NCBI RefSeq assembly: GCF_044324785.1
Contig: NZ_CP172127.1
Direction: 5' to 3' (one strand)
Origin: Escherichia coli
Lineage (GTDB): Bacteria; Pseudomonadota; Gammaproteobacteria; Enterobacterales; Enterobacteriaceae
Length of the DNA stretch: 64,000 nucleotides
In this document: in pieces, positions 1 through 31,696 of the stretch
How the letters are laid out: the number at the start of each line of letters is the position of its first letter
Numbering within the stretch: position 1 is the stretch's first letter
The notes under the pieces: model-generated
What the model saw: the letters and a program-made list of their open reading frames with translations, nothing else
The model's database searches: none
What the model was told of the DNA's origin: nothing
Position numbers and translations under genes: made by a program

Positions 1-797
1 CTATTCTGAACCCGTCATCACCTTTATAGCTAAGAGTATGACTTCGCCAGTGTTGATACTGTGGATAACGGTGATTAAGGAATTACTGTTAATGATCTGT
101 TCCTGCAGCTCACCTGATGAGTTTTGGTAGTAATACGTAAAAGAGTATGCCTCATGTCATTAAAAAGTCTTCCGGAGTGTTGTTTAACCCTGTACCTCTG
201 TTACTCATGTAGTACGTTGCGGAAAGCTACGTTAATTGTAATATCTGGTTATGGCGTTATGCCTTCAGTATTAAAAACATCTTTTACCGGAGAAACTGGG
301 AAGTGGAAAGGCTTTCGGGATAACGTCAGGCCATTATGACGATATTACGTTAATCACAGTACAAGATAACGAGAGGGTAATGGAATTTTAAACCAGAGTA
401 GTTCCACTGTTGTTCACTGGAAAAAGTGATTTCCCACGCGCGTTATAAGCTTACTCCAGAGGAGATGGAAGCCTTCAACTCTGCGGTCGATCACCGGCTG
501 GCAGAACTGACCATGAACAAACTTTACGATCGTGTTCCCGCTTCAGTCTGGAAATATGTTACCTGATAAATGTTTCTGATGAAGTACAGTCGTCACAATG
601 ACATCACTTCAGATATTATCTGCGCTGTGATTGACTGTCACGTATGCCGTTCTCTGTATGGTTCTGATACCCGGGTGTGGTCCCACTTTCTCTGTGGCGC
701 CCGGGGAGTTGTGAACCTGCACGTCTTCGTGTGATAACGTTTTCTTCAAAAATTACGCCAGCGCTTCTTCCTGTGTTACAGAACACGAGGAAGAAAC

Positions 798-1397
798 ATG
801 AAGACTTACAACACCAATCCCGGTTACGAAATGGATCCCCAGCTCCTGACACACTTTAACCAGCATCTGGATTCATTATTCGGGGTATATTCGAAACTGT
901 TACCGTTCAGAATGGATTTTGCTTACCGAAAAAACACCCTCAGCTACAGATGTGCCTGCAGGTACGCCATGTGCGCGGAGATACTGCGACTGATTAACGA
1001 AGTGGGAGAGAAACTGGTCGGGTATGCCTGGGTAATGGAATATACGGAACGTAAAGGGCTTCACATTCATTTTGTGGGCTATCTGAACGGTCAGAGCCAC
1101 AGGAGTTCGTATCTGGTATCCAGATTGATGGGAGATATCTGGAGGCGGGTTACCGGGGGGGATGGTTACTACCACTGGTGCCGGTTTAATAAAAATTATC
1201 CGGTAAACATTAACCACGTCATTCACTATTCAGATCACAAAGCGGTGAATGCCTTACGCTATGCCATCAGCTACCTGGCCAAACGAGAACAGAAAGAATG
1301 TGGCATCATCCTGAAATGCAGCGGGCTTCCTGAAAAAAGTAATCGGGGTCGACCGCGACTGGGCAGCCCCCTGCCGGAGACTTATTCTCTGGTGTAA
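798..1397 (+). CDS. YagK/YfjJ-family protein (inovirus Gp2-like), cryptic-prophage backbone gene
   Basis: 199-aa ORF; family resemblance including an H-x-H motif (GLHIHFVGY) and C-terminal RYAISYLAKREQ segment; paralog of ORF at 29921. Confidence 0.65.
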   Translation: MKTYNTNPGYEMDPQLLTHFNQHLDSLFGVYSKLLPFRMDFAYRKNTLSYRCACRYAMCAEILRLINEVGEKLVGYAWVMEYTERKGLHIHFVGYLNGQSHRSSYLVSRLMGDIWRRVTGGDGYYHWCRFNKNYPVNINHVIHYSDHKAVNALRYAISYLAKREQKECGIILKCSGLPEKSNRGRPRLGSPLPETYSLV

Positions 1398-1762
1398 GAC
1401 CCTGAACGACAACTACGGGCTGGCGCTAATTGTTACAGTCGGTTCCGGAGGCCACTTCAGGGACTCTGCGCATTTTTTACGACATGGCTATTCCGTATGA
1501 ACCATACGGAGATTTAACCATGGCACATTCTTTACCATTCCTTCCGGCAACCGATACAGCACATCCTCCGATGTCCATCCCTGCCTGCTGACAGTTTTTT
1601 ACGCCGGAGGGCCATTGTGTGACAACCACAGTGCTGTAACAGCAACCAGCCTGCTTTACCCAAACTCCAGTCCAGATTTTAACTGAACCGCCATTCACAC
1701 CCTGACCACACTGCCCGTACCGGGACAGCTGTTGCCTGCGTGTCGTCTGGCTGCTGAGGAAT

Positions 1763-2152
1763 ATGACGATGTACGCAAAATCCTTTATTGCATTTGATGG
1801 CAACGGGCGTCTGACGGGTGCCCGTACCGCACAGACTGCACCTTACGATCGCTACACTTGCCACCTTTGCGGCAGTGCGCTCAGATACCACCCGCAATAC
1901 GACACTGAGCGTCCCTGGTTTGAACACACTGACGACGGGCTGACGGAGCACGGTCAGCAGTGCCCTTATGTCAGACCGGAACGCAGGGAGATACAACTGA
2001 TTAAGCGTCTGCAGCAATTCGTACCGGATGCCTTACCCGTGGTGCGTAAAGCCAGCCGGCACTGCAGACAATGTCATCACGATTATTATGGGGAGCGGTA
2101 CTGCACGCACAGCCATACCGGGCACTTCAGTGAGGAGGGGGTGGCAGAATGA
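1763..2152 (+). CDS. Cys-rich putative zinc-ribbon protein (CxxCG...WFEH motif), unknown function
   Basis: 129-aa ORF; CHLCGS...PWFEH plus C-terminal CRQCHH..C..H cluster; stop overlaps start of the next paralogous ORF (ATGA at 2149-2152). Confidence 0.45.
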   Translation: MTMYAKSFIAFDGNGRLTGARTAQTAPYDRYTCHLCGSALRYHPQYDTERPWFEHTDDGLTEHGQQCPYVRPERREIQLIKRLQQFVPDALPVVRKASRHCRQCHHDYYGERYCTHSHTGHFSEEGVAE

Positions 2153-2574
2153 ACGGTATAAAAACGGGGCTGGGGATCACGCCGGGTGAACACATTATCA
2201 GTGCTGATTCTGCGCTCAGCAGAAATATCCGGCAGTGTTTCTGCCTTTCCTGTCATGGCCGGTTGATTTTGCAGACAGATGCTCAGGGGGCGTGGTTTGA
2301 GCACGATTTACATGTCCTGAGCGAGCAACAGAAGGCAGCCTGCGTGGTGCTGAATCCGGAAAAGTCCCACCCTTACATTGAGGATATGGAGATGTTTTTA
2401 TCGCCATTACCGGTCGTGCTGGAGTGGCATTGTGTGATGTGTGAGCAGTTTTTTCATGGGAAGAAATTCTGTGAGGCCTGTGGTACGGGGATTTATTGCA
2501 GAGCGGTATGTACGAAGTCTGTTTACAGCTACCAGCCAGACTTGTTTCAGGACTGCGGAGGTGCGAGTACTTAA
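2149..2574 (+). CDS. Cys-rich putative zinc-ribbon protein, paralog of the upstream ORF
   Basis: 141-aa ORF; CLSCHG...AWFEH motif and C-terminal CVMCEQ..CEACG..C cluster; 4-bp overlap with upstream gene suggests translational coupling. Confidence 0.45.
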   Translation: MNGIKTGLGITPGEHIISADSALSRNIRQCFCLSCHGRLILQTDAQGAWFEHDLHVLSEQQKAACVVLNPEKSHPYIEDMEMFLSPLPVVLEWHCVMCEQFFHGKKFCEACGTGIYCRAVCTKSVYSYQPDLFQDCGGAST

Positions 2575-2724
2575 TCCGAAATGCCCGACCTGCTCAGGGC
2601 GTTCAGAAGTATCGGAACCTGCATTTTATCTGGTGTTTCGCACCCACCCCGTTCGTGACACAAAGGCGCGACACCGGATATCCGCAGTCCTGCTTACCTG
2701 AATAAAACCCGGGGTATTGATTGT

Positions 2725-2781
2725 GTACTGTGGTGCGAAATCGCACCGTGATCGCGGATTCGCCGAATCCGCACTGTGGTG
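2725..2781. repeat. Two adjacent perfect hairpins flanked by a 9-bp direct repeat (ACTGTGGTG)
   Basis: GGTGCGAAATCGCACC (2732-2747) and GCGGATTCGCCGAATCCGC (2754-2772); ACTGTGGTG at 2727-2735 and 2773-2781. Confidence 0.5.
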
Positions 2782-3045
2782 TCAACCAACCATACGCGAG
2801 AGTCCTCTCCGTATTTATCAGTGCCTCAGGACGATTTCTGCATAGTTAATCCAGGGGGCTGCATTGTTTATTTCCCTGCTAATGGACGTGACATCCAGGA
2901 TATTCATGATCCTGATTTCCCTGAGCAGTATCAGCGCTTATTGGAGCGTCTGGATTATCAGACGATGCCCGGTACTAAAGCATCAGGCCAGCGTAACTCT
3001 GGCTACAGCGGTTTTTGACCTGTTGTAACTGTAAGGTGATTTATT

Positions 3046-3612
3046 ATGTATACAGAATCAAATGTTAAGCTTTCCTGTAACGCCCTCTGGCAAAAGTGTG
3101 TCCTTGCAACTCTGTATCGGGCTGCAGCCACACATCCTGAAATTAAATTATTACAATTTAAATTAATACCAGGGCAGGGTATTAATAAGGCCATTCCCTC
3201 TCTGATGGCTGATTTTACTGGTGAACTGCATAGACTCATTTCTGAATATTTGCAGTGTAAGCGACGTAAAGAGCAATCTGTTGAGCCCACCCCTTTATAT
3301 TATCTCTGGAGTAGGGAAGCTGTGGCTAACGATACCACTCCTTATCTTATGGTGCTGCTACTTAATAACGATGTCTGGTGTAAGAGTCGTGAGGTGGTGG
3401 TTCTCAGAAATCTGATTGAGCAGGCGTGGGGAAAAGTATTGGGTGAAGATAACTCCATTACACATCTGGTTGTGTATCCTGAAGTGCTGTCGTTGGTATT
3501 TGATGCAGCTAACACATACAACGCTGAGCCTGCTGTACTGGAACAGACGGCCCGGGCTTACATTGAATCACATGGTACCATTGAACGTCATCTTGGGTGT
3601 AGTGACTTTTAA
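3046..3612 (+). CDS. Gp2/YagK-like family paralog with degenerate H-x-H region
   Basis: 188-aa ORF; PYLMVLLLNNDVWCKS aligns with HYHVILLLNKDTWCSP of the ORF at 25669. Confidence 0.45.
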   Translation: MYTESNVKLSCNALWQKCVLATLYRAAATHPEIKLLQFKLIPGQGINKAIPSLMADFTGELHRLISEYLQCKRRKEQSVEPTPLYYLWSREAVANDTTPYLMVLLLNNDVWCKSREVVVLRNLIEQAWGKVLGEDNSITHLVVYPEVLSLVFDAANTYNAEPAVLEQTARAYIESHGTIERHLGCSDF

Positions 3613-3724
3613 CGTCAGGTGATGCATAAGGGCCTTTCGCTGAGAGGCCCTGTTTACACAATTAAATAAATCGAGCCCGACCAACAATTTTGATGTTAAC
3701 AGCAGGATTATTGAGGGGCAATCA

Positions 3725-3830
3725 ATGTGTTCTTCGGTAGCGATTACGGTAGTGAACGGACCTGCTGTCTGAATGGCATCGATCCGCAAGCGTATCGGCG
3801 CCATATTCTGAGCGTACTACTGAAATGGCT
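3725..3830 (+). pseudogene. IS66-family transposase C-terminal remnant
   Basis: Translation FFGSDYGSER..CCLNGIDPQAYRRHILSVLLKW matches the C-terminus of the IS66 transposase at 57024-57383 (FFGSDHGGERGALLYGLIGTCRLNGIDPEAYLRHILSVLPEW) with a frame disruption; approximate bounds. Confidence 0.5.
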
Positions 3831-3957
3831 AATGGCAGTAAAGAGAGACTTTACGTATATTTGCATAAAGCAGGATTTTACGACTAGTCAACATTCTTTA
3901 TAATTCTTCAGGTTCAGAGTATCTGACATATAGGGTTATGTATTGGGGAGACATTTA

Positions 3958-4659
3958 ATGTTTGGCCATCTGTTACGATACTTTAGTTTCTGTAAAAAAG
4001 ATTTATTAGTATTTCATCCTGAATCTGATTACTCAGATAATTTACATAAAGCCTTCTCTTTTACAAAAAGGCTAGGATTTAATGAAGAATGGAATGGGGT
4101 CACAAAAAACAAAGAATATGATTATCAGGATGTATTCAGTCATGTCTGTCTGCAGTCTGGTGTGACAGACTTTTCCGCTTCAGCAGGACAATGCTTAAAG
4201 TGGAGTCATTATTTTCAGCCATATTTTGAGAATATCCTTGAATGTCGGGTATGGGTTACCGTTGGACAACTCTGGAAACAGGAACGATTTATTTACAATC
4301 CGTCAGTTGCGGATTTTCAGCGCTGGTCTGAAAAAGGGATTCAGCCTGAAGATTTTAGACATCACTCGGGGTTTAACTTTCATGCGTGGTTGACGACGGA
4401 AAATGGTGTGATTGTGGATGTTTCCTTTATGAGTACGTTATCGCGGCGATTACCTGAACACCTGAGTGAAGTCAGTGGAAGTGTGATTATTGGCACGCCA
4501 GAGACGGTTCTTCCTGAGTATAAATATGTTCCCATGATTGTCGGTCAGAGGATTGTTGAGAAAATAGAAAAACGCTCTTTCATTGGTTTTCTGGCGCACG
4601 ACGATATTGATTTATATACAGTACCTGCAATCTTGGTTCCGGTATGGAAAGAATGTTAA
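3958..4659 (+). CDS. Hypothetical protein, no recognisable family; orphan cargo gene
   Basis: ORF 3943-4659; likely ATG at 3958 preceded by GGGGAG; AT-rich upstream region; flanked by IS66 and IS21 remnants. Confidence 0.5.
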   Translation: MFGHLLRYFSFCKKDLLVFHPESDYSDNLHKAFSFTKRLGFNEEWNGVTKNKEYDYQDVFSHVCLQSGVTDFSASAGQCLKWSHYFQPYFENILECRVWVTVGQLWKQERFIYNPSVADFQRWSEKGIQPEDFRHHSGFNFHAWLTTENGVIVDVSFMSTLSRRLPEHLSEVSGSVIIGTPETVLPEYKYVPMIVGQRIVEKIEKRSFIGFLAHDDIDLYTVPAILVPVWKEC

Positions 4660-4978
4660 AGCACGGAATAACACTATGCACTTACCGCTTTCCGGAACTC
4701 AGCTTGTTACCTGAGCGGTCAACAGAGCAGTCTTTCAGTGTCTGCACTTGGTTGCCACTAAACCGGAGTCATTTATCAGAAGTATATGTTCATGGAAGGA
4801 TATTGTCAGCGCCAGTGATATAAGACGGTAATGAGGATAGCCACCCCGCATGGGTTTCCTCAACACTGGTCACTGTGACAAGCGCACCATGATCGTCTTT
4901 GTATCGCTGATTGACTTTCGATAATAGAACATCTTCTGACATAAATTTTAGTACGGTAACAATTAACTAAATTTTCAT

Positions 4979-5245
4979 GTGGTAGCACTGAATCAGGAGA
5001 CTGCGTTTCCTGATGTGTGCTTCTGCAGCCGTTACCGGATACAGACTTCGATACCAGTTACTTCGACATCCGCCATGTGTCCTGGGACCCGCTATAACGA
5101 AGTTGGAGGTAATCAGTACAGCGTTCCCGAAATGCTGTGTGGTCAGCCAGTCTCGATACGAATATCGCTGAACGATGAGTTGCGGATCTACAGTAATGAG
5201 AAACTGGTGGCCTCACATCGCCTCTGCTCAGTGTCGTCTGGCTAG
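4979..5245 (+). pseudogene. Possible IS21-family IstA C-terminal fragment
   Basis: Segment YSVPEMLCGQPVSIRISLNDELRIYSNEKLVASHRL resembles IstA C-terminal region; weak, by eye. Confidence 0.3.
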
Positions 5246-5389
5246 CAGATAGTACCGGAACCTCACGCCCCGCTCTGGCAGCAGATCAGTCAGGTGGAAC
5301 ATCGACCACTGAGTGCCTATGAGGAGCTGTTGTGATGCATGTGTCAACGACGGATGAAAGTGGCTCTTCCGCAACCTGGGTGGAGATTT

Positions 5390-6816
5390 TCATGCCAGTG
5401 GACTCATTACCCTCTGCCTGAGTAGTTCAAATCCTGCTCGACCATACATCTGGCGTTTCAGCATCTTCAGGCGATTTACATGACCTTCGACAACACCATT
5501 ACTCCAGTGACTACTGATTGCCTCACATATAGCTGCAGCATCAGCTTCCATCCCCGCCGCCACGCGCCGAAATTCTGCTGAACCGCTTTCGTGGACTCGA
5601 GTGAACCAACTGCTTAGCTGTGATTTATTTTGGGTTTTCAGAATACGGTAGAACTCGAGTGCCAGTTGCTGCGCTATTTTCAGCTCAGGTTCTTTTTCAC
5701 ACATCAGACTAATAAATCGGGAAGCATAATTTTCTTCATCCCTGGTTATTCTCCAGGGCATCAACCAGCGGCTTACCCGGGACACTGAAGGAAGTCTGAC
5801 GGCAGTAGTAACCGGTGGGTTCCAGCCTTTACGCCATTTGGCAACCGCATCCCTGACGATGGTTTCACTGCCTGTAAATCCCCGGGCCACCATTTCCCGC
5901 CATATCCGGCTGGCGTTATAATTACCACTTTCTCGTTGCTCTTTTAACCACTCCCTCCATGGGTCCAGAAGCCCTCGCTTTGGCGGTCGGGTTGACATTT
6001 CAGGGAATGTTCCTGAACGCACCCAGCGACTGACTGTCACACGCGACAGGCCTGTAATACGGGATATTTCCCTGAAACTACATCCCTTGTTATGCAGGGC
6101 CATAACCTCTGTCCAACGCTGATGCCGTTTTTTGCGGGTTTGTTGTTTTAGGCGTTCCGGACGACGGAGCGATGCTGCAGGCACAGATGGTTCTGGATCA
6201 GGTGATTTCTTTGGTGACAACTCACTGGCAACAAGACGTATCAGAGGTATATGTCTATACATCATTCGTTCAGGCGCATCGCCAATATTTTTTAGCAGAT
6301 GCCATCGATCGGCCACCTGTCTGGCCTGAGGTGCACCTTCACGTGCTGCTGTCGCATAGACTCCACTGCGATCACGCGAGACAATCTGTATTTCCGGATA
6401 TTTTCTGAACCAGGTCGCCAGCGTACGCTGATCACGGCCGGGAAGCAGGACGAGGGGACGGTGAGTATCAAGATTGACGATTAACGTACCGTAACGGTGG
6501 CCCCGATGCCACGCCCACTCATCAATACCGACATGAGGCGAGCCTGACTGTTTCGTCTCCGGGGTATTGATAACCCTGCGAAGGAGAGTATCAGCACTGC
6601 AACGGAGACCCACTGCCGTTGCTGCCCGTTTCCCGGCCTCACCTCCGGCGATTAATCCCAGTTGACGTTGTAAATTTTGTAACGCCTGTGAAGACTGTTG
6701 GTGTGAACCGGCGAAGGGAGCAAGCGACTCGGCAAAAATTTTACGTGAACAAGCCGGGTTACGGCAGTACCAGTGGCGGACAGAAAATACAAGCCATAGC
6801 GTATGTCCTGAGCAGG
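5390..6816 (-). pseudogene. ISL3-family transposase, N-terminus interrupted by IS2
   Basis: C-terminal SNGVVEGHVNRLKMLKRQMYGRAGFELLRQRV signature; RHWYCRNPAC zinc knuckle and VGIDEWAWHRGHRYGTLIV DDE region; first 13 codons of track ORF 5390-6853 are encoded by the IS2 right end. Confidence 0.6.
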
Positions 6817-6827
6817 TGGATTTGCCC

Positions 6828-7733
6828 CTATATTTCCAGACACCTGTTATCACTTAACCCATTACTGGCCTGCTGCCGCAGATATTCCCGTGGCGAGCGA
6901 TAACCCAGTGCACTATGCGGATGCCATTCGTTATAATGCTCGAACGCCTCTGCAAGGTTCTTTGCTGCCGTTAACCCGTCTGGTTTAGGCATGATACTGA
7001 TGTAGTCACGCTTTATCGTTTTCACGAAGCTCTCTGCTATGCCGTTACTCTCCGGACTCCGCACCGCCGTGTTCTTCGGTTCAAGCCCCAACATCCGGGC
7101 AAACTGCCGTGTTTCATTAGCCCGGTAGCATGAACCATTATCCGTCAGCCACTCTACTGGAGACGCCGGAAGCTCGTTGCCGAAGCGGCGTTCCACCGCT
7201 CCTGGCATGACGTCCTGTACTGTTTCACTGTCGAAGCCGCCCGTAGTGACTGCCCAGTGCAGTGCCTCACGGTCACAGCAGTCCAGCGCGAACGTGACTC
7301 GCAGTTTTTCTCCGTTATCACAGCGGAACTCGAACCCGTCAGAGCACCATCGTTGATTGCTTTCTTTCACGGCCACTTTGCCAGTATGTGCCCGTTTCGA
7401 TGGCGGTACAGCGGTTTTTCGCTCAAGCAACAGCGCATTCTGGCGCATGATCCGGTAAACACGTTTGGCATTGATCGCAGGCATACCATCAAGTTCGGCC
7501 TGTCTGCGAAGCAGCGCCCATACCCGACGATAACCATACGTGGGCAGCTCTCCGATAACATGGTGTATACGGAGAAGCACATCCGTATCATCTGAGTGAC
7601 GGCTGCGGCGACCATCTTTCCAGTCATCGGTTCGTCTGAGAATTACGTGCAACTGCGCACGCGACACCCGGAGACAACGGCTGACTAAGCTTACTCCCCA
7701 TCCCCGGGCAATAAGGGCGCGTGCGCTATCCAC
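6828..7733 (-). CDS. insD: IS2 transposase OrfB (InsD)
   Basis: 301-aa ORF with rve-type DDE integrase core; recognised as IS2 InsD from memory. Confidence 0.9.
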
Positions 7734-8056
7734 TTTTTTGCACGCCCGTATTCAACGGCTTCTTTAAGGAGTTCATTTTCCATCGTTTTTTTGCCGAGCA
7801 GGCGCTGGAGTTCTTTAATCTGCTTCATGGCAGCAGCAAGTTCAGAGGCAGGAACGACCTGCTCTCCTGCGGCCACAGCAGTAAGACTTCCCTCCTGGTA
7901 TTGCTTGCGCCAGAGAAATAACTGGCTGGCTGCCACACCGTGTTGCCGGGCAACAAGGGAGACCGTCATTCCCGGTTCAAAACTCTGCTGAACAATAGCG
8001 ATCTTTTCCTGTGTAGTACGCCGTCTGCGTTTCTCCGGTCCTAAGACATCAATCAT
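7691..8056 (-). CDS. insC: IS2 OrfA (InsC)
   Basis: Starts [27 protein letters not shown] protein overlapping orfB as in IS2. Confidence 0.85.
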
Positions 8057-8613
8057 CTGCTCTCCAATGACTAGTCTAAAAACTAGTATTAAGACTATCA
8101 CTTATTTAAGTGATATTGGTTGTCTGGAGATTCATGGGGCCAGTCTAATGTGTATCCGGGATGGATGTTTACCAGAACCTTCTCTGTTCCAGTGTGTGGA
8201 GTTTTACAGAAGAGGCGACTGTATGCAACTCTTGCCCCGTAACTGTCTTTATTCGTTTCTCCACACTCTCCGGACATTGTAAATTCCAGATGTGTGGCAG
8301 TGTGTTTTTCGTAAATCGTACACAATGCATTTTTACACGGAGTTCAGCCAGTCGTATCACTGAGAGTTTTTTTCTGATTTGTACCACTCATGCAGCAGTG
8401 ATAAGGAGATATTTTCTCTGTCGGGCCAGCAGGGGCGGTGCCACCTGTTTAGTTTTCTTATGTTTGGTAAAAGAGAGGCTAAAATATATACAACAGGCGT
8501 ATGTAATGATTCATATTGTTAATCATTAACCAGTAAGAATTAATGTAGTGGATCGGTAATTCAGGACACCTCGAAATCCTGTTAATGTTAAAACAGTGAA
8601 AATGGGGTGATGC

Positions 8614-8931
8614 ATGAGCAAAACTCGTCGGACTAAACGCACCTTTTCCCCGGAGTTCAGGCTCGAAGCTATCGAGCAAGTAGTTAAATACCAGCGCGAT
8701 GTCAGAGAAGTCGCGCTGGCACTTGAGCTCAATCCTGACCATTTGCGTAAATGGATACGGTTGTATAAGCTGGAACTTCAGGGTATTGAGCCCGCTGGTA
8801 ATGCCATACCCCTGAACAGCGAGAAATTCAGCAGCTTAAAAGCGCAGATAAAGCGCCTTGAGATGGAAAAAGAAATACTAAAGCAGGCTGCCGTGCTGAT
8901 GAGCGAAATCCCCGGCAAGCTGTCGCGCTAA
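8614..8931 (+). CDS. IS3-family transposase OrfA (HTH plus leucine zipper), element truncated downstream
   Basis: 105-aa ORF MSKTRRTKRTFSPEFRLEAIEQV...LEMEKEILKQAAVLM; only the first codons of an orfB follow before the adjoining IS-like copy at about 9062. Confidence 0.65.
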   Translation: MSKTRRTKRTFSPEFRLEAIEQVVKYQRDVREVALALELNPDHLRKWIRLYKLELQGIEPAGNAIPLNSEKFSSLKAQIKRLEMEKEILKQAAVLMSEIPGKLSR

Positions 8932-9061
8932 TCACACTGCTGAAAGCAAAGCGGCCAGTGCGGATTATTTGTCATTTATTCGGTGTTCACCGTAGCGTTT
9001 ATTACGCGCAGGTGAAGCGTCCTGTTAATGTATCAGCGCCAATGATATAAGACAGTAATTA

Positions 9062-10688
9062 GGATTCGGACGATTTCCTGGACTGCTTTATTATGCCAGC
9101 CCGCATTGTTGGCGGTACATTTCAGGGATGACTGCACCCAGCGAAAATTTTATACGCCGCTCGTTATACCATCTGATGTAAGCATCCACATGCCGCATGA
9201 ATTTTTCAGGCGTGATACCCAATCATTTACGCCCATAATATATTTCAGTTTTCAGTCTGCCGAAAAAGCCTTCGCATGCAGCATTATCAGGCGAGCATCC
9301 TTTACGGGACATTGAGCGAATAAGGCCTGCTGTATTCACTCTTTCCAGCCAGGCCAGCGATAATGCCCACCTCTGTCACTGTGTATCACCGGTCGTTCGC
9401 CAGCATTTAACGTTTCGACAGCGTTATCCAGCATAGTGTTGACCAGTTCAGCATCGGGGCGTGTACTGAGAGACCAGCTCACAACTTTTCTGTCGAAGCA
9501 GTCCACCACCGGTGATAGCCAGACTTTTCCTGCAGGAAGCTGGAACTCCGTGATATCTGTCAGCCATTTCTGATTAGGTTGCTCCGCCTTAAAATCTCTG
9601 GCGATAAGGTTATCCGGAGAAGGTCCGATTTCTCCGCAATATGAGCTGTAGCGGCGATGACGGTTACGGCTGACGACAAGCTGTTCCTCCACCATAAGTC
9701 TGCGTACAACCTTTTCTGATAGCCGATCCCCCTCATGCCTGAGCATCGCATGCAGGCGACGATAGCCATAACACTGGTAATTACTGTTAAATATATCTGT
9801 CAGCATCGTACGTATCGTGGCGTATTTATCACTGGCTTTCAGTGCAGCCCGGTGATAAAAATAACTGCTACGGGCAAGGCCCAGAACATGCAGTAATTCT
9901 GTCAGGGGATATGTTTATCTCAGGGCATCAGTAATCTTTGTTTTTTCTCTGTTGTTCAGGTGACTGATGCTGATGCCCGGGTCTTTTTTTATTATTTCCT
10001 CCGCTTTTTTCAGAATATCCAGTTCCATCTGCCGGCGGCGTATTTCCTGATTCAGTCGGGCGACTTCCTCCCGCAACGCATCGCGTTCTGCCTCCAGGGA
10101 AGGGGCGTTATGTTTACGCATAGTCTGGTAAGCACTGTTGCCGATAATTTCATCTTTCCATTTATACAATACCGCGCGACTGACACCAATACGCCTGGCG
10201 ATTTCACTGGCTGATCCTTGTCGTGTACAGAGTACCATGACAGCCTGACGTTTGACTTCTGGTTCAAAGGACGCAACCGGATTGGTCTTACTGGTAAATA
10301 CACGTCGTCTGTCGGGGGAACGTTCATTAACCCAGCGAGCGAGCATATCGGTACAGGGATAACCCAGAGTCCTGCTGGTAAACGCCAGGCAGCAGCCGTG
10401 GTTAAGATAATGTTCAACGGCAACCTGTTTTTGCTCATCGGAGTAACGGTGCTTATGACGAATGGATTCTTTTGATCCGCCACCTGCTTCCCATGAACGG
10501 ATCCAACGCCGCAGATTTCTTTTCGAAGGGTAGCCCAGTTCGCGTACGACGGGGCCAGCTTCTTACCATATTTGAAATAAAGCTCAATGGTGCGAATTTT
10601 TTGTTCTTCAGTAAACATGTTTCATCTCCTGAGAGTCCAGGAAATCGTCCGCATCCCCTAACGGTCAAAAATCGTGGCGTTGATACAG
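9062..10688 (-). mobile_element. DDE (rve) IS-like element, copy 1, decayed; about 50-bp terminal inverted repeats
   Basis: Left end TGTATCAACGCCACGATTTTTGACCG (reverse complement at 10688); right IR lacks about 35 terminal bp; transposase carries a 1-bp frameshift after MFTEEQKIRTIELYFKYGKKLA, a TAA where copy 2 has CAA (Gln), and further shifts near the 3' end. Confidence 0.65.
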
Positions 10689-10868
10689 GGGAAATCCGTA
10701 GTTTTTGATGCCAGCCATAACGTGTTTGACTATAAAGTATTACGAAAGGACTTTAATGAGCCCCTGGAATAATTCATTAAAGTAATTTACTTCGCTATCC
10801 TTTTCCCAGTTACTCACAAAGAAAAATATTCATAAAATAATTCCCGGGCTGGCAGCCCGGGATGATTA

Positions 10869-12131
10869 CTATTTTAATGGATTGTTAATCTTTGCATATT
10901 CAAACGGGCTGATACATTGTTCTCTGTTCGCACCCAGAAAATCTGCCCACCACTGTAGCATCAGTCGACGTTCTTCCAGATGTTCTGCTTTATGGATATA
11001 TGCAGCACGTACACCATTACGCTCCTGATGGCTCATCTGACGTTCCACAGCATCGCGGGACCACAAACCTGATTCAATCAATGCACTGCACGCCATCGCC
11101 CGGAATCCATGACCACAGACTTCCTGGGTTGTGTCATATCCCATCACCCTCAGGGCTTTATTTACAGTATTTTCACTGATCGGTTTACGCGGGTCATGTG
11201 CTCCCGTAAAGATCAGACCATTTTCACCAGCCCATGTCTGTAGTTCTGTCAGTATGGCTACAGCCTGTTTGCTGAGTGGCACAAGATGTGGTGTTCGCAT
11301 CTTGGAGCCCCGGTGTGAGTATTTTACGCCTGGCAGAGGTTCGCGTTCGGCTGGAATAGTCCACATGGCATTGTCAATATCAATTTCAGACCAGCGGGAA
11401 TATCTGAGTTCACTGGAACGAATAAAAACCAGTAAATTCAGCATAACTGCCAGTCGGGTGACAGGCTGACCTTTATAACCGTCAATACGCGACAGAAGTT
11501 CAGGCAGGCGTGAAAGATCCAGAGCAGGGCGATGCTGGCGTTTTACCGTGGTCAATGCACCAGCCATATCCAGAGCCGGGTTATATCTGATGATGCCAGA
11601 CTGTACGGCATAACGCATTACAGCAGATATTCTTTGCTGCAGACGACTGGCGATTTCATAAATTTGTTTTGCTTCTGCAGCACGAACAGGGATAAGCAGG
11701 TCCGGGGTATTGAGTGTTGTGATATCCCGGTTGCCGATAAAGGGGAAAACGTGTGTCTCGAGGCTTTTGATTACTTTATCGCTGTGTGATTGTGCCCATT
11801 GTTTATTACTGGCATGCCAGCGTCGTGCAATATGTTCAAAAGAGAGTTGTAAATCAGGGACTACTTTTTTAGCTCTTTTTTGTTCGCAAGGGTCAATCCC
11901 CTCTGAAATCAGTTTTCGGGCCTCATCCCGTTTTGTACGAGCTTCGGAGAGAGAAACTTCTGGATATACACCAAGTGCCAGAGTCTTCTCCTTACCCAGA
12001 ATACGATAACGGAGACGCCAGTAACGGGAACCATTAGGATGAACCAGCAGGAACATGCCAGCCCCGTCAGTGAGTTTATAAGCCTTGTCAGTGTGCTTTG
12101 CAGCCCGGATTTTTGCGTCAGTCAGTGCCAT
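10869..12131 (-). CDS. P4-type tyrosine integrase (CP4-like island integrase)
   Basis: 420-aa ORF; N-terminal LTDAKIRAAK..GMFLLVHPNGSRYWRLRYR arm-binding domain and C-terminal catalytic region (HGFRAM...RAAY). Confidence 0.9.
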   Translation of the reverse strand: MALTDAKIRAAKHTDKAYKLTDGAGMFLLVHPNGSRYWRLRYRILGKEKTLALGVYPEVSLSEARTKRDEARKLISEGIDPCEQKRAKKVVPDLQLSFEHIARRWHASNKQWAQSHSDKVIKSLETHVFPFIGNRDITTLNTPDLLIPVRAAEAKQIYEIASRLQQRISAVMRYAVQSGIIRYNPALDMAGALTTVKRQHRPALDLSRLPELLSRIDGYKGQPVTRLAVMLNLLVFIRSSELRYSRWSEIDIDNAMWTIPAEREPLPGVKYSHRGSKMRTPHLVPLSKQAVAILTELQTWAGENGLIFTGAHDPRKPISENTVNKALRVMGYDTTQEVCGHGFRAMACSALIESGLWSRDAVERQMSHQERNGVRAAYIHKAEHLEERRLMLQWWADFLGANREQCISPFEYAKINNPLK

Positions 12132-12295
12132 AGTTCAGCCTTCTGAATGCGTTAAAGAGGGTACAAATTCTGTCGAACTGGGGTATACCCGCAATTATAC
12201 CCACACAATGGGGTTGATGTGGGGGGAATCTGGTTGAGTTCGGTAGAATTGATTTGGAGGCAGAACGCTTAAATTGTGGCGTTCTGAAACGAAAA

Positions 12296-12317
12296 ACGGA
12301 CCTCCGTGGAGGTCCGT
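12296..12317 (-). terminator. Rho-independent terminator hairpin downstream of the tRNA-Phe 3'-end copy
   Basis: Perfect palindrome ACGGACCTCCGTGGAGGTCCGT followed on the minus strand by TTTTCGTTTC. Confidence 0.5.
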
Positions 12318-12328
12318 TGATATGAATT

Positions 12329-12347
12329 TGGTGCCCGGACTCGGAAT
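12329..12347 (-). repeat. Copy of tRNA-Phe 3' end (att core) without tRNA body
   Basis: Minus-strand ATTCCGAGTCCGGGCACCA equals the last 19 nt of E. coli tRNA-Phe; upstream sequence does not match the tRNA body. Confidence 0.65.
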
Positions 12348-12594
12348 GAAACTGGTTGTATAACAAGTTGTTTTATATTGATTGTTTTGTGTTTGTTATT
12401 TTTGAGGCCACCAATGAGGCCCCCATGTGCAATTCGAATTCTTTTGACGCTATAATCCCTCTTTCTTGTGGTTTGTTGTAATCATTTTGTCTGGTTCGAT
12501 ATGCTGAATCGCGGAATCGAAGTGACAACAAAATACAGAGATTTATAAAATACCTGGCTACCTGTGTTAGGGAGCGTTAACGCACAGATTTTGT

Positions 12595-25668: not shown

Positions 25669-26400
25669 ATGAATCAACCAATACACAATGATTACTGGTT
25701 ATCCCGTTTTGAAAGTATTCTCAACAGTGCCCTGGTGCAACACCGTGCCGTCTCGTTAATCCGGGTGGATTTACGTTTCCCTGAGCATATGCCTGTCACC
25801 ATCATGGATCCCGATCCGGATTCAGCGGTGATTTCTCGTTTTTTCGAATCCCTGAAAGCCAAAATTCAGGCTTACCAGCGGAAAAAACGACGTACCAACA
25901 AGCGTGTGCGTGCAACCACCCTGCATTATTTCTGGTGTCGGGAGTTTGGCAAGGAAAAAGGCAGGAAACATTATCACGTGATATTACTGCTCAACAAAGA
26001 TACCTGGTGCTCGCCAGGGGATTTCACCGTTCCTTCTTCGCTGGCGACGCTGATCCAACTGGCATGGTGTAGCGCTCTGCATCTTGAGCCCTGGCAGGGT
26101 AATGGACTGGTTCATTTTTCCAGGCGGACGCCTTTCCGTAAACCGGCATCATCTGATGCTCGCCCTTCTTCCGATGATACGCCTTTGTCGGGTGGATGTT
26201 CTGAAACCAGGAAGGCTTCAGACAAAAAGCCGGGTGAAGCCGCTGTTCTCTGGATCAAGCGTGGTGATGTGGAAGCGATGCAGAAAGCCATGGAGAGAGC
26301 CCGTTATCTCGTGAAGTATGAGACGAAGCAGCATGACGGTTCTGGTCAACGTAATTATGGTTGCAGCCGTGGAGCGGGGCGTCTACTGGATGGCAGGTGA
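25669..26400 (+). CDS. Gp2/YagK-like family paralog (HYHV motif)
   Basis: 243-aa ORF; RKHYHVILLLNKDTWCSPGD; ACGGAGAT upstream of ATG. Confidence 0.5.
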   Translation: MNQPIHNDYWLSRFESILNSALVQHRAVSLIRVDLRFPEHMPVTIMDPDPDSAVISRFFESLKAKIQAYQRKKRRTNKRVRATTLHYFWCREFGKEKGRKHYHVILLLNKDTWCSPGDFTVPSSLATLIQLAWCSALHLEPWQGNGLVHFSRRTPFRKPASSDARPSSDDTPLSGGCSETRKASDKKPGEAAVLWIKRGDVEAMQKAMERARYLVKYETKQHDGSGQRNYGCSRGAGRLLDGR

Positions 26401-26726: not shown

Positions 26727-28331
26727 ATGAATTCCGCTTATATGCAATCCTTGCAGACATCCCACCACTTCCCAGCTGATTTAACCTACAGATTATTTCC
26801 TAGTGAGCTTGCATATCTCATTGACGACTTATATGAAAGTACCCAACTTCCGCTGGAGCTCATTTTTAATACTGTACTGGCAACGCTCTCACTCTCCTGT
26901 CAGTCACTGGTTGACGTTGTTCATCCTCACACCAACATGCCGGAACCCTGCTCACTTTATCTGTTGGCAATCGCAGAGCCAGGCGCGGGAAAAACAACGA
27001 TAAACAGACTGGTGATGAACCCCTGTTACGAATTTGCCGATCGACTCATTCAACAATACGAAGAGAGAAACAAAGATTATAAGACTGAACTACAGATCTG
27101 GAATACCCGGCAGAAAGCGCTTGCTGCCAATTTAAGAAAGGCTGTTAACCGGGGGTATCCGGGGGAACAGGAAGAAGAGGCGCTGCGTAATCACGAAAGA
27201 AATAAACCGACACGTCCGGTTCGACCGAATTTTATCTATGAAGATGTTTCGCTTAAAGCGCTTGTGGAAGGGCTCAATGAACATCCTGAGGCAGGGGTTA
27301 TTTCTGACGAGGCGGTCACTTTTTTCAGAAGCTATCTGAAAAATTATCCGGGCCTGTTGAATAAAGCATGGAGTGGACAACCGTTTGATTTTGGACGGGC
27401 TGACGAGAAATACCATATCACGCCACGTCTGACATTTTCGTTAATGTCCCAGCCGGATGTCTTTACGAATTATATAAATAAAAATGACGTACTGGCGTGG
27501 GGAAGCGGATTTCTTTCCCGGTTTCTGTTCAGTCAGACCGGAAGTCCTTCCCGGGTACGGGATTATACGAGAGGCGAGTTCAGAACAAAACCAACCCTGG
27601 AGAAGTTTCATAAAAAGATTAACGGATTTCTGTTAAGCCATAACATTAATTCCCCCGGTATGAGCACCGAAAGGAAAACATTAAAACTTGCAAAGAAAGC
27701 GTTGGGGGAGTGGCAGGAAAACCAGATTAAGATTGAAAGAAAAGCGCTTGCAGGAGGGGAGTGGGAACACATCAGAGATATTGTTCTGAAAGCAGGTTCT
27801 AATATACTGAGGATAGCTGGAATATTCACCTGCTATTGCTATAAAGATGCTGAGGAAATTGAATCAATTGCGCTTTTTAAAGCTATGCATCTCATGGACT
27901 GGTATCTGGAGGAGGCGAGCACAATATTTTATCCCATGTCTGCACGATGCCAGTTTGAACAGGATGCCTGTGAACTGTATGCATGGATTATGACCCGAAT
28001 AAGGCAGAATAATTGGCGTGCTATCAGGAAAACAGACATTGAAAGATATGGTCCCAATCGTCTGAGAAGAGCAGAAAAACTTACACCTGTACTCAATCAG
28101 TTAATCGCTCAAAATTATTTCCGTATCATCAAGATGCGATCGCATCAGGCACTTTATGTTTCTGCTCTTGATAATAATGGTTACATCCTTCCTTTCGGCG
28201 CAATGTCTTACGAACCGTTTGATATTGTTCCACCCCAGTATAACCATAATGCGAAAACATATTCCGTTGTTATTCCACCGGCATTAATTCAGTCATTTAC
28301 ACCTGATTCCTCAGCTTACACCTTATTTTAA
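26727..28331 (+). CDS. YfjI-like P-loop protein (DUF3987-like), putative NTPase
   Basis: 534-aa ORF; Walker A AEPGAGKTT; strong SD GAAGGAGG. Confidence 0.6.
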   Translation: MNSAYMQSLQTSHHFPADLTYRLFPSELAYLIDDLYESTQLPLELIFNTVLATLSLSCQSLVDVVHPHTNMPEPCSLYLLAIAEPGAGKTTINRLVMNPCYEFADRLIQQYEERNKDYKTELQIWNTRQKALAANLRKAVNRGYPGEQEEEALRNHERNKPTRPVRPNFIYEDVSLKALVEGLNEHPEAGVISDEAVTFFRSYLKNYPGLLNKAWSGQPFDFGRADEKYHITPRLTFSLMSQPDVFTNYINKNDVLAWGSGFLSRFLFSQTGSPSRVRDYTRGEFRTKPTLEKFHKKINGFLLSHNINSPGMSTERKTLKLAKKALGEWQENQIKIERKALAGGEWEHIRDIVLKAGSNILRIAGIFTCYCYKDAEEIESIALFKAMHLMDWYLEEASTIFYPMSARCQFEQDACELYAWIMTRIRQNNWRAIRKTDIERYGPNRLRRAEKLTPVLNQLIAQNYFRIIKMRSHQALYVSALDNNGYILPFGAMSYEPFDIVPPQYNHNAKTYSVVIPPALIQSFTPDSSAYTLF

Positions 28332-29920: not shown

Positions 29921-30487
29921 ATGCCTAAATCTTACACACCAAACTGGTTTTTTACCGCTTTACTTGACAATCACATCAATCAAATGATGGCACGCTATTC
30001 CTGCCTGCGGGCCTTACGGATGGATTTCTTCTACAGGAAAGATACGCCTGATTTCTTACAACCTGATCATCGCTGGCTTGAATTGCAGTTGCGTATGCTG
30101 CTGGAGCAGGTGGAACAATTTGAAAATATCGTTGGTTTCTTCTGGGTGATTGAATGGACGGCTGATCATGGTTTTCATGCGCATGTGGTTTTCTGGATCG
30201 ATCGTCAGAGGGTTAAAAAAATATATCCCTTTGCGGAGCGGATAGCGGAATGCTGGCGGTCTATTACGCATAACAGCGGTTCGGCACACCGCTGTACATA
30301 TCAGCCGCATTATACATACAACATCAACATTCCTGTGCGCCACAACGATCCTGAAAGCATCGATAATATTCGCGGTGCCCTGCATTATCTGGCAAAAGAA
30401 GAGCAAAAAGACGGGCTGTGTGCCTACGGCTGCAATGAAGTTCCTGAACGTCCTGCTGCAGGGCGTCCTCGTAAGCCTCACTTCTGA
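29921..30487 (+). CDS. YagK/YfjJ-family protein (inovirus Gp2-like)
   Basis: 188-aa ORF; HGFHAHVVFWIDRQ H-x-H motif; paralog of ORF at 798. Confidence 0.65.
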   Translation: MPKSYTPNWFFTALLDNHINQMMARYSCLRALRMDFFYRKDTPDFLQPDHRWLELQLRMLLEQVEQFENIVGFFWVIEWTADHGFHAHVVFWIDRQRVKKIYPFAERIAECWRSITHNSGSAHRCTYQPHYTYNINIPVRHNDPESIDNIRGALHYLAKEEQKDGLCAYGCNEVPERPAAGRPRKPHF

Positions 30488-30744
30488 AGCTTAAATCCTG
30501 AGCTTCCTGTCCTGGAAACACTCCGTCGGTAAAAACTTACCGCCTTGCTTAATGATGTGAACTGAAGTCAACGGAGATCATTCACTCTGAACCACATCCG
30601 GTGTTCTGTCCCTTGTCGGTGACCTGATCTTCCCGTTCTGCCCCGGTTCTTCACTTATTCCATCAACCCCATCCGCAAACCATAACACGTCAGCTTATTC
30701 ACGGGCAGGACGCATTGTGGGCTGCGCATAACGGAGCATATCTT

Positions 30745-31305
30745 ATGAATGCTATCCCTTATTTCGACTATAGCCTGGCCCCCTTCTGGCCATCTTATCA
30801 GAACAAAGTCATCGGCGTCCTTGAGCGTGCGCTGCGTGAGCAGTCCGGCTCACGGATACGGCGGATCCTGCTTCGTCTGCCGTGTGAATATGACAATACC
30901 TTCAACAGCAGAACGACCTGGTTTGGTATGGATTTTATCGAAACCGTCAGTGCGCTGATGAATGCAACACCCGGACGTGACCTTTGCTGGCTCCTGACCC
31001 GTCATCCTGAAAAACCGGAATACCATGTGGTGCTGTGCGTCAGACAGGAGTATTTCGACGGCCCCGAACTGGATCGGTTGATTCTGGATGCCTGGAGTAA
31101 CGTGCTGGGTTTCGCGTCACCAGGTGAAGCAAAGCCGTACCAGAAGCAGATCACCCGGGATGTGGTACTGGATCGCCGGTCACCGGACTGCGAAGCCCTG
31201 TTTAAGGACCTTATCTGGGCGTTCAGTGATTTCGCCCGCGATCGCCGTGGAGTGCGCGATCCGGAAGCCCGTTGCCTCGCCGGTAATCCCGGTTGGCAGT
31301 GCTGA
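30745..31305 (+). CDS. Gp2/YagK-like family paralog
   Basis: Track ORF 30715-31305; PEYHVVLCVRQEYFDGPEL aligns to the H-x-H region of the 25669 paralog; start Met uncertain. Confidence 0.45.
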   Translation: MNAIPYFDYSLAPFWPSYQNKVIGVLERALREQSGSRIRRILLRLPCEYDNTFNSRTTWFGMDFIETVSALMNATPGRDLCWLLTRHPEKPEYHVVLCVRQEYFDGPELDRLILDAWSNVLGFASPGEAKPYQKQITRDVVLDRRSPDCEALFKDLIWAFSDFARDRRGVRDPEARCLAGNPGWQC

Positions 31306-31373
31306 AAGCAGCATTCCATCCCATACCTCGTATTACCCCATTCTTCATCAATCTCACAGAGGATATTCTGACC

Positions 31374-31607
31374 ATGTTGACCACAATAAGCCACGACAGC
31401 GTGTTGCTGCGTGCCGACGATCCCCTGATCGACATGAACTACATCACCAGTTTCACCGGCATGACCGATAAATGGTTTTACAGGCTGATCAGTGAAGGTC
31501 ATTTCCCTAAACCCATCAAACTGGGGCGCAGCAGCCGCTGGTACAAAAGTGAAGTGGAGCAGTGGATGCAGCAGCGAATTGAGGAATCACGAGGAGCAGC
31601 AGCATGA
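31374..31607 (+). CDS. alpA: AlpA-family transcriptional regulator / excisionase-like HTH protein
   Basis: Internal start of track ORF 31293-31607; MTDKWFYRLISEGHFPKPIKLGRSSRWYKSEVEQWMQQR matches the AlpA pattern. Confidence 0.7.
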   Translation: MLTTISHDSVLLRADDPLIDMNYITSFTGMTDKWFYRLISEGHFPKPIKLGRSSRWYKSEVEQWMQQRIEESRGAAA

Positions 31608-31696
31608 AACGTGTTGTAATGCCAGTACGCTGGCAATGTGCGAAATGCCGGCGCTGGTATTGTGGAAATCAGCCCTGTCCCTGGTGCTGGCGCTGA
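31604..31696 (+). CDS. Unannotated 30-aa Cys-rich putative zinc-ribbon peptide
   Basis: MKRVVMPVRWQCAKCRRWYCGNQPCPWCWR; ATG overlaps the alpA stop (ATGA); below the 60-aa ORF-track cutoff. Confidence 0.35.
   Translation: MKRVVMPVRWQCAKCRRWYCGNQPCPWCWR

Follow-up and report, generated by a model that had tools for sequence, protein, structure and literature searches.

Paired predicted zinc-ribbon genes adjacent to the YagK/YfjJ gene in CP4-57/CP4-6-like islands of Enterobacterales

The window analyzed here, a stretch of 64,000 nucleotides from an Escherichia coli genome (RefSeq assembly GCF_044324785.1, contig NZ_CP172127.1), contains close to its left end two overlapping genes on the plus strand that encode small, cysteine-rich proteins. 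Gene A, the upstream paralog, occupies positions 1769..2152 (127 aa) or, if translation starts at the preceding ATG, 1763..2152 (129 aa), and is delineated by its open reading frame, RefSeq, Pfam and alignment with homologs; gene B, the downstream paralog of 141 aa, occupies 2149..2574 and is delineated by the same types of evidence. The start codon of gene B (ATG, 2149-2151) shares bases with the stop codon of gene A (TGA, 2150-2152); this ATGA overlap, as well as the length of B, had been recorded correctly in the initial annotation, which gave the longer form of 129 aa for A. For gene A, the start at 1769 is more likely than that at 1763 because a GAGG at 1756-1759 is better spaced for the former ATG and because the orthologs begin with MYAKSF; the second ATG is also the start used in RefSeq (WP_000270956.1). 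A strong Shine-Dalgarno-like sequence for gene B, GAGGAGGGG, can be read within the 3' end of gene A (plus strand, 2133..2141). The product of gene B is WP_001013324.1 in the RefSeq annotation of E. coli strain TUM9803, and window positions 1400-2900 match the respective stretch of that strain at 100%.

The two proteins share 31% identity over 81 aa (BLASTP, E = 2e-9) and, judging from this match, are paralogs. Comparison of E. coli alleles yields dN/dS values of 0.06-0.12 for gene A and 0.15-0.24 for gene B; these low ratios show that both reading frames are subject to purifying selection and indicate that both are real genes. The open reading frames on the minus strand that run across the pair (1679-2017 and 2086-2304) were rejected as genes given the Pfam domains and the low dN/dS of the plus-strand frames. 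Gene B evolves faster than gene A, both among the E. coli alleles and across paired loci. Gene A is preceded on the same strand by a conserved non-coding leader (1590..1768), delineated in an alignment of seven E. coli alleles, in which hardly any variation is seen over the final ~85 nt (about 1686-1768) whereas the coding dS is 0.3-0.6, so that the leader is more conserved than the coding sequence. The leader includes the hairpin-capable sequence CTGCCCGTACCGGGACAG, with a folding z-score of only -1.7. Scans of window positions 1-6000 for Rfam families, repeats, promoters and terminators produced nothing tied to the pair.

The pair is located in a CP4-57/CP4-6-like island. Proceeding along the plus strand, the first gene of the arrangement is one for an Hha/YmoA-family small nucleoid-associated regulator (417..566 in the RefSeq annotation of the 99.96%-identical TUM9803 stretch; the open reading frame in the window spans 426-566). 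A gene of this family is also found upstream of the pair at the homologous loci L005, L029, L030 and L031 and is the usual left neighbor in E. coli islands. The next gene (plus strand, 798..1397) belongs to the YagK/YfjJ ('inovirus Gp2') family and is presumed, from Pfam and motif alignment, to encode a protein similar to rolling-circle Rep proteins or nickases. Its product matches the Pfam families REP_ORF2-G2P (E = 9.9e-5) and YagK_YfjJ_C (E = 4.3e-4), and an alignment of 15 homologs indicates that both an HUH-like motif (GLHIHF) and a Y-L-A-K tyrosine motif are intact. Genes A and B are followed by a second gene with a YagK/YfjJ domain (plus strand, 3046..3612), a paralog identified by its RefSeq name, PHROG matches and alignment, in which the HUH motif (TPYLMV) and the tyrosine motif are both lost; this paralog is probably catalytically inactive. 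Further along are an unassigned open reading frame of 238 aa, IS debris and, at the end of the island, a tyrosine integrase on the minus strand (10869..12131), as identified from the open reading frame and from the RefSeq annotation of the matching stretches of TUM9803 and F1022. The region between the module and the integrase consists of variable cargo and IS debris. Positions 1-12350 of the window are 99.96% identical to E. coli TUM9803, and identity with both TUM9803 and F1022 ends at 12350. An assignment of the whole window to a TUM9803-like stretch, with its right part as an SPI-7-type integrative and conjugative element, was rejected since the BLAST identity ends at that position.

According to the Pfam matches, A and B are members of two catalogued families, DUF7828 (PF25165) at the N-terminus and Zn_ribbon_11 (PF11682, formerly DUF3279) at the C-terminus. 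The DUF7828 matches are nearly full-length in both proteins (A, E = 2.8e-31, model positions 1-87 of 87; B, E = 3.7e-22, positions 2-86 of 87). The Zn_ribbon_11 match is strong and nearly complete in B (E = 3.8e-15, positions 1-36 of 37), where all four cysteines are present in a W-x-C-x2-C-x9-C-x2-C pattern, and partial in A (E = 1e-4, positions 7-32 of 37). The weakness of the latter match is accounted for by two changes in the window allele: the fourth ribbon cysteine is replaced by serine (CTHSHTG, compared to CTHCHTG in the 98.9%-identical CFT073 allele), and the near-invariant tryptophan preceding the first ribbon cysteine is replaced by arginine. The full ribbon is retained in the A alleles of loci L004, L028 and L029. 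Throughout the family, the ligand set of the N-terminal domain, C-x2-C...F-x-H...C, is invariant in alignments of 33 and 38 members; the respective residues are C32, C35, F50, H52 and C65 in B and, in the numbering of the 127-aa form, C31, C34, F51, H53 and C65 in A. In the C-terminal ribbon, which follows the family pattern C-x2-C-x9-C-x2-C, C95, C98 and C108 are invariant and C111 is present in ~90% of the 33 members. The residues that are invariant in this alignment just suffice for two zinc sites of four ligands each and leave no other invariant polar residue for a role in catalysis. The BLASTP match, the Pfam matches and the 33-member alignment together bear out the description of the two proteins in the initial annotation as paralogs with an N-terminal CxxC...WFEH motif and a C-terminal cysteine cluster. 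In the AlphaFold2 model of B, the N-terminal domain (pLDDT 80-88) is predicted to consist of strands, with a beta-hairpin after the CxxC, and a helix ending at the last ligand, and is connected by a disordered linker to the ribbon (pLDDT 63-74). The proteins are not basic, with a family median pI of 7.1 and a pI of 5.7 for B of the window.

The pair is already represented in RefSeq, as 'putative zinc ribbon protein', and in the two Pfam families, neither of which has an assigned function; in line with the initial annotation, no characterized family was matched, although the pair does belong to catalogued ones. Literature searches under the family names and accessions found no paper that mentions DUF7828/Zn_ribbon_11 proteins. 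The family is small and narrowly distributed: a family profile search yielded 269 matches among 1.84 billion cluster representatives, and all members with a named organism are from Enterobacterales, including Escherichia, Salmonella, Klebsiella, Enterobacter, Citrobacter, Serratia, Edwardsiella, Providencia, Pectobacterium, Budvicia and others. Among the matches listed, the proteins do not exceed 240 aa, and a search of a set of 5.8 billion proteins with a profile of the N-terminal domain retrieved only small DUF7828 proteins with or without the ribbon; no fusion to an enzymatic domain was found in the latter search or among the matches listed in the former. Some of the UniProt members are mislabeled 'DNA-directed RNA polymerase beta subunit/140 kD' or 'Competence protein'. 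The DNA of the pair is present in 3853 of the 5426 complete E. coli genomes (~71%), at 7927 places, and there are 30 matching plasmid records; no phage homologs of the pair were found. Scans against NCBIfam, PADLOC and PHROGs gave no match for A or B, and none of the defense families in PADLOC-DB v2 was assigned to A, B or the three neighboring proteins. The link to phage or plasmid exclusion that the initial annotation had put forward for testing thus failed to materialize in either the PADLOC or the phage homolog search.

The genomic context of these genes is conserved. Where enough upstream sequence is available, nearly all loci, from at least 8 genera and one type of plasmid, encode a YagK/YfjJ homolog upstream on the same strand. 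Outside the window, the common order is YagK/YfjJ, usually AlpA, the zinc-ribbon gene or genes and then variable cargo, and it is maintained at protein identities of ~30-35%. The same arrangement is observed in Escherichia, on a Klebsiella IncFIB/IncHI1B plasmid, in Superficieibacter, Hafnia, Yokenella, Serratia and Ewingella, and in metagenomic enterobacterial contigs. The alpA gene directly precedes the zinc-ribbon gene(s) in most of the loci outside E. coli; in the E. coli islands, it is not a direct neighbor, and ~365 nt lie between yagK and A. The cargo is diverse and includes the Kiwa protein KwaA, type I HsdR, SMEK/MC6/DUF2326 and TIR proteins, an ars operon and metabolic genes; an integrase is encoded beyond the cargo in L016 and L017, as it is in the window. 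The upstream YagK/YfjJ proteins retain the H-x-H and Y-L-x-K motifs and match REP_ORF2-G2P, whereas the downstream paralogs (3046-3612 in the window, and L008) have lost both; the arrangement with a second, downstream paralog also occurs on the Klebsiella IncFIB/IncHI1B plasmid. There are two exceptions to the association: locus L033, a 2.5-kb contig with three or four tandem zinc-ribbon copies and no YagK gene, and the CP4-6 and CP4-57 islands of E. coli K-12, in which yagK and yfjJ are present and the zinc-ribbon genes are not. Given that K-12 has kept yagK and yfjJ, the Rep-like gene is not strictly dependent on the zinc-ribbon genes. In addition, the pair is frequently disrupted, being broken by IS elements, deletions or frameshifts in L005, L006 and L031. 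Because the zinc-ribbon genes hold a fixed place by YagK/YfjJ while the cargo downstream varies, they behave, as far as gene order can tell, as part of the backbone, not the cargo, of integrase-AlpA-Gp2-like islands.

Pairing of A and B is common but not obligatory. In every adjacent pair examined, in several genera, A precedes B and the two genes overlap by 1, 4 or 13 nt; coupled expression of A and B is well supported. In a neighbor-joining tree, the upstream copies form one conserved clade (the 'MYAKSF' proteins), the downstream copies form a broader clade and single-copy genes fall into a third, deep clade; this layout suggests that A and B originate from one old duplication. In E. coli, partners of the B type found in the window (2675 places) and of a B' type (5022 places) together account for ~97% of the 7927 places. 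Between the B type of the window and the downstream copies at the other paired loci, identity is as low as 26-34%. The initial annotation had made the pairing of homologs a touchstone, and the outcome is mixed: overlapping pairs do exist in many lineages, but singletons without a second copy at E<=1 are found in the A clade (L032), the B clade (L023 and L024) and the deep clade (L016 and L026), and at L014 and L022 the copies are not adjacent. Furthermore, L035 contains an uncalled partial copy 5' of its B, the B gene of L019 has acquired one additional DUF7828 copy, and A/B chimeras are present in databases.

These data bear on the possible heterodimer that the initial annotation had linked to coupled translation. 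If A and B formed an obligate complex, with the complex as the functional unit, the kept order and overlap, the single ancient duplication with its two resulting clades, the presence of some B type beside A at ~97% of the E. coli loci and the extra DUF7828 copy in the B of L019 would all fit. However, A proteins that are 89% identical are partnered by B proteins that are only 32% identical; averaged over eight pairs, identity is 58% among the A proteins and 44% among the B proteins, with only a weak correlation between A and B divergence (r = 0.29). The singletons of both clades point in the same direction. An AlphaFold2 model of an A-(GGGGS)6-B fusion, built with 13 paired sequences, gave a pTM of 0.31 and no gain in domain confidence over B alone, although this is a weak test given the shallow alignment and the lack of PAE values. 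An obligate, co-evolving heterodimer is thus not supported, and a complex of A and B as the functional unit, although compatible with the other interpretations discussed below, appears doubtful.

The similarity of the N-terminal motif to the zinc finger of CoiA, on which the initial annotation had remarked, turned out to be faint, albeit recurrent. The CoiA nuclease resolves transformation D-loops in Gram-positive bacteria. It is a PD-(D/E)XK nuclease that processes D-loops, and its N-terminal domain, CoiA_N, is a putative zinc finger (bioRxiv 10.1101/2024.02.06.579203). The CoiA_N family (PF25164) matches 8 of the 33 aligned family members at E<=0.1, with the best E-value of 1.3e-3 and none at E<=0.001, and is absent even from the matches listed at E<=10 for A and B of the window; 7 of the 33 members also match DUF7830. 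These sub-threshold matches provide a weak but reproducible basis for the resemblance. A search with an approximate CoiA-like sequence yielded no candidates for a CoiA N-terminal profile, so that the link comes from the Pfam scan only. The resemblance consists in the motif order, with C-x2-C-G followed by a beta-hairpin, an aromatic-F-x-H motif and then a cysteine. Unlike CoiA, A, B and their relatives lack the PD-(D/E)XK nuclease core (PF06054) and CoiA_C, possess an additional C4 ribbon and are confined to enterobacterial mobile islands.

A parallel to the gene neighborhood is found in Pseudomonas, where the intY-alpA-'inovirus Gp2-like'-RadC islands I23, I44 and I55 are transduced by phages and carry defense-rich cargo while their core functions are undefined (PMC12595487). 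Like these islands, the enterobacterial ones combine a tyrosine integrase, an alpA gene beside a Gp2-like gene and variable, defense-rich cargo, and some of the annotated CP4-like islands also encode a RadC/JAB protein; unlike in the present islands, no zinc-ribbon genes are reported for those of Pseudomonas (PMC12595487).

Taking these observations together, we tentatively propose, with a probability of roughly 40%, that A and B function as accessory factors in the excision/replication (or mobilization) module of the island and are zinc-finger proteins without enzymatic activity. Each protein comprises two predicted, independent zinc sites joined by a flexible linker, namely, an N-terminal CCHC finger of the beta-hairpin-plus-helix type (DUF7828), with a distant likeness to the N-terminal finger of CoiA, and a C-terminal C4 zinc ribbon (Zn_ribbon_11). 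The pair would be expressed from the same strand as the gene for the HUH-type, Rep-like YagK/YfjJ protein and, outside E. coli, directly after alpA, with B translated from its own Shine-Dalgarno site in a manner coupled to the end of A. Their targets could be the DNA of the island, a DNA intermediate, the Rep-like protein or AlpA, or more than one of these; A would be the constant part of the system and B the part that can be exchanged. The role in excision or replication, the binding of nucleic acids or of Rep/AlpA and any contact between A and B are predictions that we infer from the features described above. This interpretation accommodates the purifying selection on both genes and their presence in most of the complete E. 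coli genomes, the two zinc sites in the absence of a catalytic domain or residue, the fixed synteny across genera, the HUH and tyrosine motifs of the upstream YagK/YfjJ proteins, the recurrent CoiA_N likeness and the conserved leader; moreover, islands with an integrase, alpA, a Gp2-like gene and RadC are a recognized mobile, defense-carrying class (PMC12595487). It sits less comfortably with the near-neutral pI of the proteins, the yagK and yfjJ genes that persist without zinc-ribbon neighbors in K-12, the frequent disruption of the pair, and the distance to yagK and the non-adjacent alpA in the E. coli islands. The Rep activity of YagK/YfjJ itself is only presumed, and fold searches were uninformative.

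The same near-neutral pI is no less suited to the binding of proteins than to that of DNA, which makes it relevant to a different possibility, namely, that A and B are zinc-finger transcription factors that would activate genes of the island or of a helper once AlpA has triggered induction. The P2 Ogr and P4 Delta proteins are small zinc-binding proteins of integrase-bearing elements, and Delta consists of two Ogr-like halves, to which the duplicated zinc-finger unit of the present pair can be likened by analogy; other small zinc ribbons that bind RNA polymerase are also potential counterparts. The location of small proteins with two zinc sites directly after alpA, in most of the loci outside E. 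coli, and the conserved leader upstream of A are consistent with such a role. Furthermore, in a search of PDB sequences, the family profile matched the RNA polymerase subunit Rpb9 over both zinc sites, albeit without significance (E = 0.08-0.11); apart from Rpb9, only non-significant rubredoxin-type matches were obtained, and the search with B alone gave no match. As in Rpb9/TFIIS-type double zinc ribbons, two zinc sites are separated by a linker of ~30 residues, but, unlike in those proteins, the last two ligands of the first site are a histidine and a distant cysteine, and fold searches detected no structural match to proteins of this type, so this likeness is an analogy only. The Ogr_Delta family of Pfam is missing both from the matches listed at E<=10 for A or B and from the families matched by the 33 members and, unlike Ogr and Delta, A and B are encoded behind a Rep-like gene and alpA rather than in a late operon. 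On balance, a function in transcription appears unlikely, somewhat more so than an obligate complex of A and B. Given that the genes lie at the border between the conserved backbone and cargo that often holds defense genes (KwaA, HsdR, SMEK/MC6/DUF2326, TIR), that B is the faster-evolving protein of the two and is exchanged among islands, and that related islands are transduced by phages and contain defense genes (PMC12595487), an accessory conflict module for phage defense, anti-defense or sensing of helper phages, with the variable B as the specificity component, also has to be considered. It is improbable, however, in view of the lack of PADLOC and PHROG matches, of phage homologs and of effector-like domains, and of the position of the genes, which stays fixed while the cargo beyond it changes, that is, backbone-like behavior. 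The least probable of these scenarios, and a very improbable one, is that these are remnant genes in decay, or an addiction pair resembling toxin-antitoxin systems, without a role in the island: the frequent disruption, the lost zinc ligand in A of the window, the K-12 islands without these genes and the superficially toxin-antitoxin-like layout of two small overlapping genes fit it, but dN/dS is well below 1 for both genes, they are retained across genera at ~30% identity, A and B are paralogs of each other, unlike toxin-antitoxin pairs, and no toxin-antitoxin family was matched in NCBIfam or PADLOC.

A more elaborate variant, which we regard as speculative and improbable, is that A and B are the specificity module of a switch in the life cycle of the island. 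In such a scheme, A would dock on YagK/YfjJ or AlpA while B would recognize a signal from a helper phage or the host, or a DNA intermediate, and the two proteins together would set the timing of excision, replication and packaging of the island. If so, the DUF7828/Zn_ribbon_11 proteins would be a new class of induction sensors of satellites or islands.

The sequence evidence points to no unusual biology. What is added here to the existing catalogue entries is the backbone context beside a Rep-like gene, the duplication history and the non-obligatory pairing. Most E. coli genomes contain CP4-57/CP4-6-like islands, frequently as several copies, with a cargo of adhesins, toxin-antitoxin pairs and phage defense genes, and the excision, replication and movement of these islands are poorly understood. 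The zinc-ribbon pair is among the few genes that are locked to the YagK/YfjJ (and usually AlpA) core across genera. Should A and B prove to be accessory factors that bind DNA or Rep, they would help to define the mechanism of replication or mobilization of a very common class of islands and might also illuminate the N-terminal finger of CoiA.

Finally, a search for related loci with a subset alignment identified 7 genomic loci; two of these are on contigs that probably come from E. coli and were binned into a Collinsella metagenome-assembled genome.

The zinc-ribbon family is subject to recombination, both between tandem paralogs and between island alleles, as shown by the existence of chimeric single proteins in the databases (P0074, P0072, P0067, and P0053). 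These combine an N-terminal domain from one type of paralog with the C-terminal part of another, in the combinations A/B, B'/B, and B/B', where B' is the alternative E. coli type of the downstream paralog. Outside E. coli, the copy number of the family is variable. In locus L019, the B protein (P0115, 238 aa; 6001-6717) contains an additional DUF7828 copy without a ribbon ahead of the full copy, and locus L033 carries three or four family ORFs in tandem (113-2248). In locus L035, a partial, uncalled copy (3603-4010) is located immediately upstream of the supposedly single gene; pairs are therefore undercounted by gene callers. In AFDB/UniProt, the name 'DNA-directed RNA polymerase, beta subunit/140 kD subunit' is attached to many members (e.g., F4T7M7, B7LG76, and A0A2C6DNN4 among the family entries), and a single member is called 'Competence protein'. 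For ~140-aa proteins that carry two zinc modules, such names seem to be annotation errors that have been propagated.

The window allele of gene A, the upstream member of the pair, is distinct in its C-terminal ribbon. The codons at 2107-2118 encode CTHS, with a serine in the position of the fourth zinc-ribbon cysteine, which is retained in all other A proteins examined, including the CFT073 allele that is 98.9% identical to the window A. The nearly invariant tryptophan ahead of the ribbon is replaced by arginine in both the window and the CFT073 proteins. The zinc site at the A C-terminus may be weakened in the window strain. Among the E. coli alleles, the non-coding leader of gene A (1590-1768) is more strongly conserved than the coding sequence. 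Its final ~85 nt are close to invariant, even in strains 55989 and 446, in which the sequence farther upstream is unrelated, and the leader contains a short, hairpin-capable sequence, CTGCCCGTACCGGGACAG. It may represent a promoter/operator, a structured 5'UTR, or a site for Rep/AlpA. At the other end of the pair, the final 45 nt of gene B (2530-2574) show a 100% match within the annotated type II secretion gene gspC of E. coli TUM12355, which may reflect an old recombination or deletion junction.

Downstream of B, there is a second YagK/YfjJ-domain gene (3046-3612) in which the HUH motif and the tyrosine motif have both been lost, whereas the upstream copy retains them. The pair in a Klebsiella IncFIB/IncHI1B plasmid (locus L008) is similarly flanked by an apparently active and an apparently inactive YagK/YfjJ copy. 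In that plasmid, the second YagK paralog is followed by a DUF2913 gene; in the window, it is followed by a 238-aa ORF (3943-4659), for which Pfam (with a cutoff as loose as E<=10), NCBIfam, PADLOC, and PHROGs all gave no match. The zinc-ribbon module is separated from the integrase by IS debris (5390-8101) that consists of an N-terminally truncated transposase ORF of the ISL3 family (ISEc38; 5390-6853) and an abutting IS3-family element with a two-ORF, programmed-frameshift transposase (6828-8101).

The identity of the window to TUM9803 and F1022 stops at 12350, and its end (12330-12350) falls within an att remnant resembling a tRNA 3' end (...TTCCGAGTCCGGGCACCA, minus strand). ARAGORN detected no tRNA in the whole window; at this spot, the RefSeq annotation of TUM9803 has a 78-nt 'tRNA-Ser', and that of F1022 has a tRNA-Phe. 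Past the junction, a second CP4-like island extends in tandem to about 33000. Strain 1223 likewise has this second island, and the annotation of its corresponding stretch lists ParDE, DUF4942, CbtA/YeeU, antirestriction, DUF932, and GTPase genes. In the window, the Gp2-family gene of this island (25669-26400) is followed by an ORF of 534 aa (26727-28331) that contains a P-loop-like GAGKT motif and in place of which strain 1223 has an annotated TIR-domain gene on the opposite strand.

The second island also encompasses a 30-aa, ribbon-only ORF, MKRVVMPVRWQCAKCRRWYCGNQPCPWCWR (31604-31696), directly after alpA (31293-31607), with the alpA stop and the ATG of the ORF overlapping as ATGA. This ORF matches the zinc-ribbon family profile over positions 88-117 (E 1e-4) and occupies the slot that in other islands is taken by A/B; it could be either a remnant or a minimal version. 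On its flanks are YagK-like genes, one with an intact HUH motif (29921-30487) and one without an HUH-like motif (31837-32433), along with an ORF that weakly matches the YagK profile (30715-31305).
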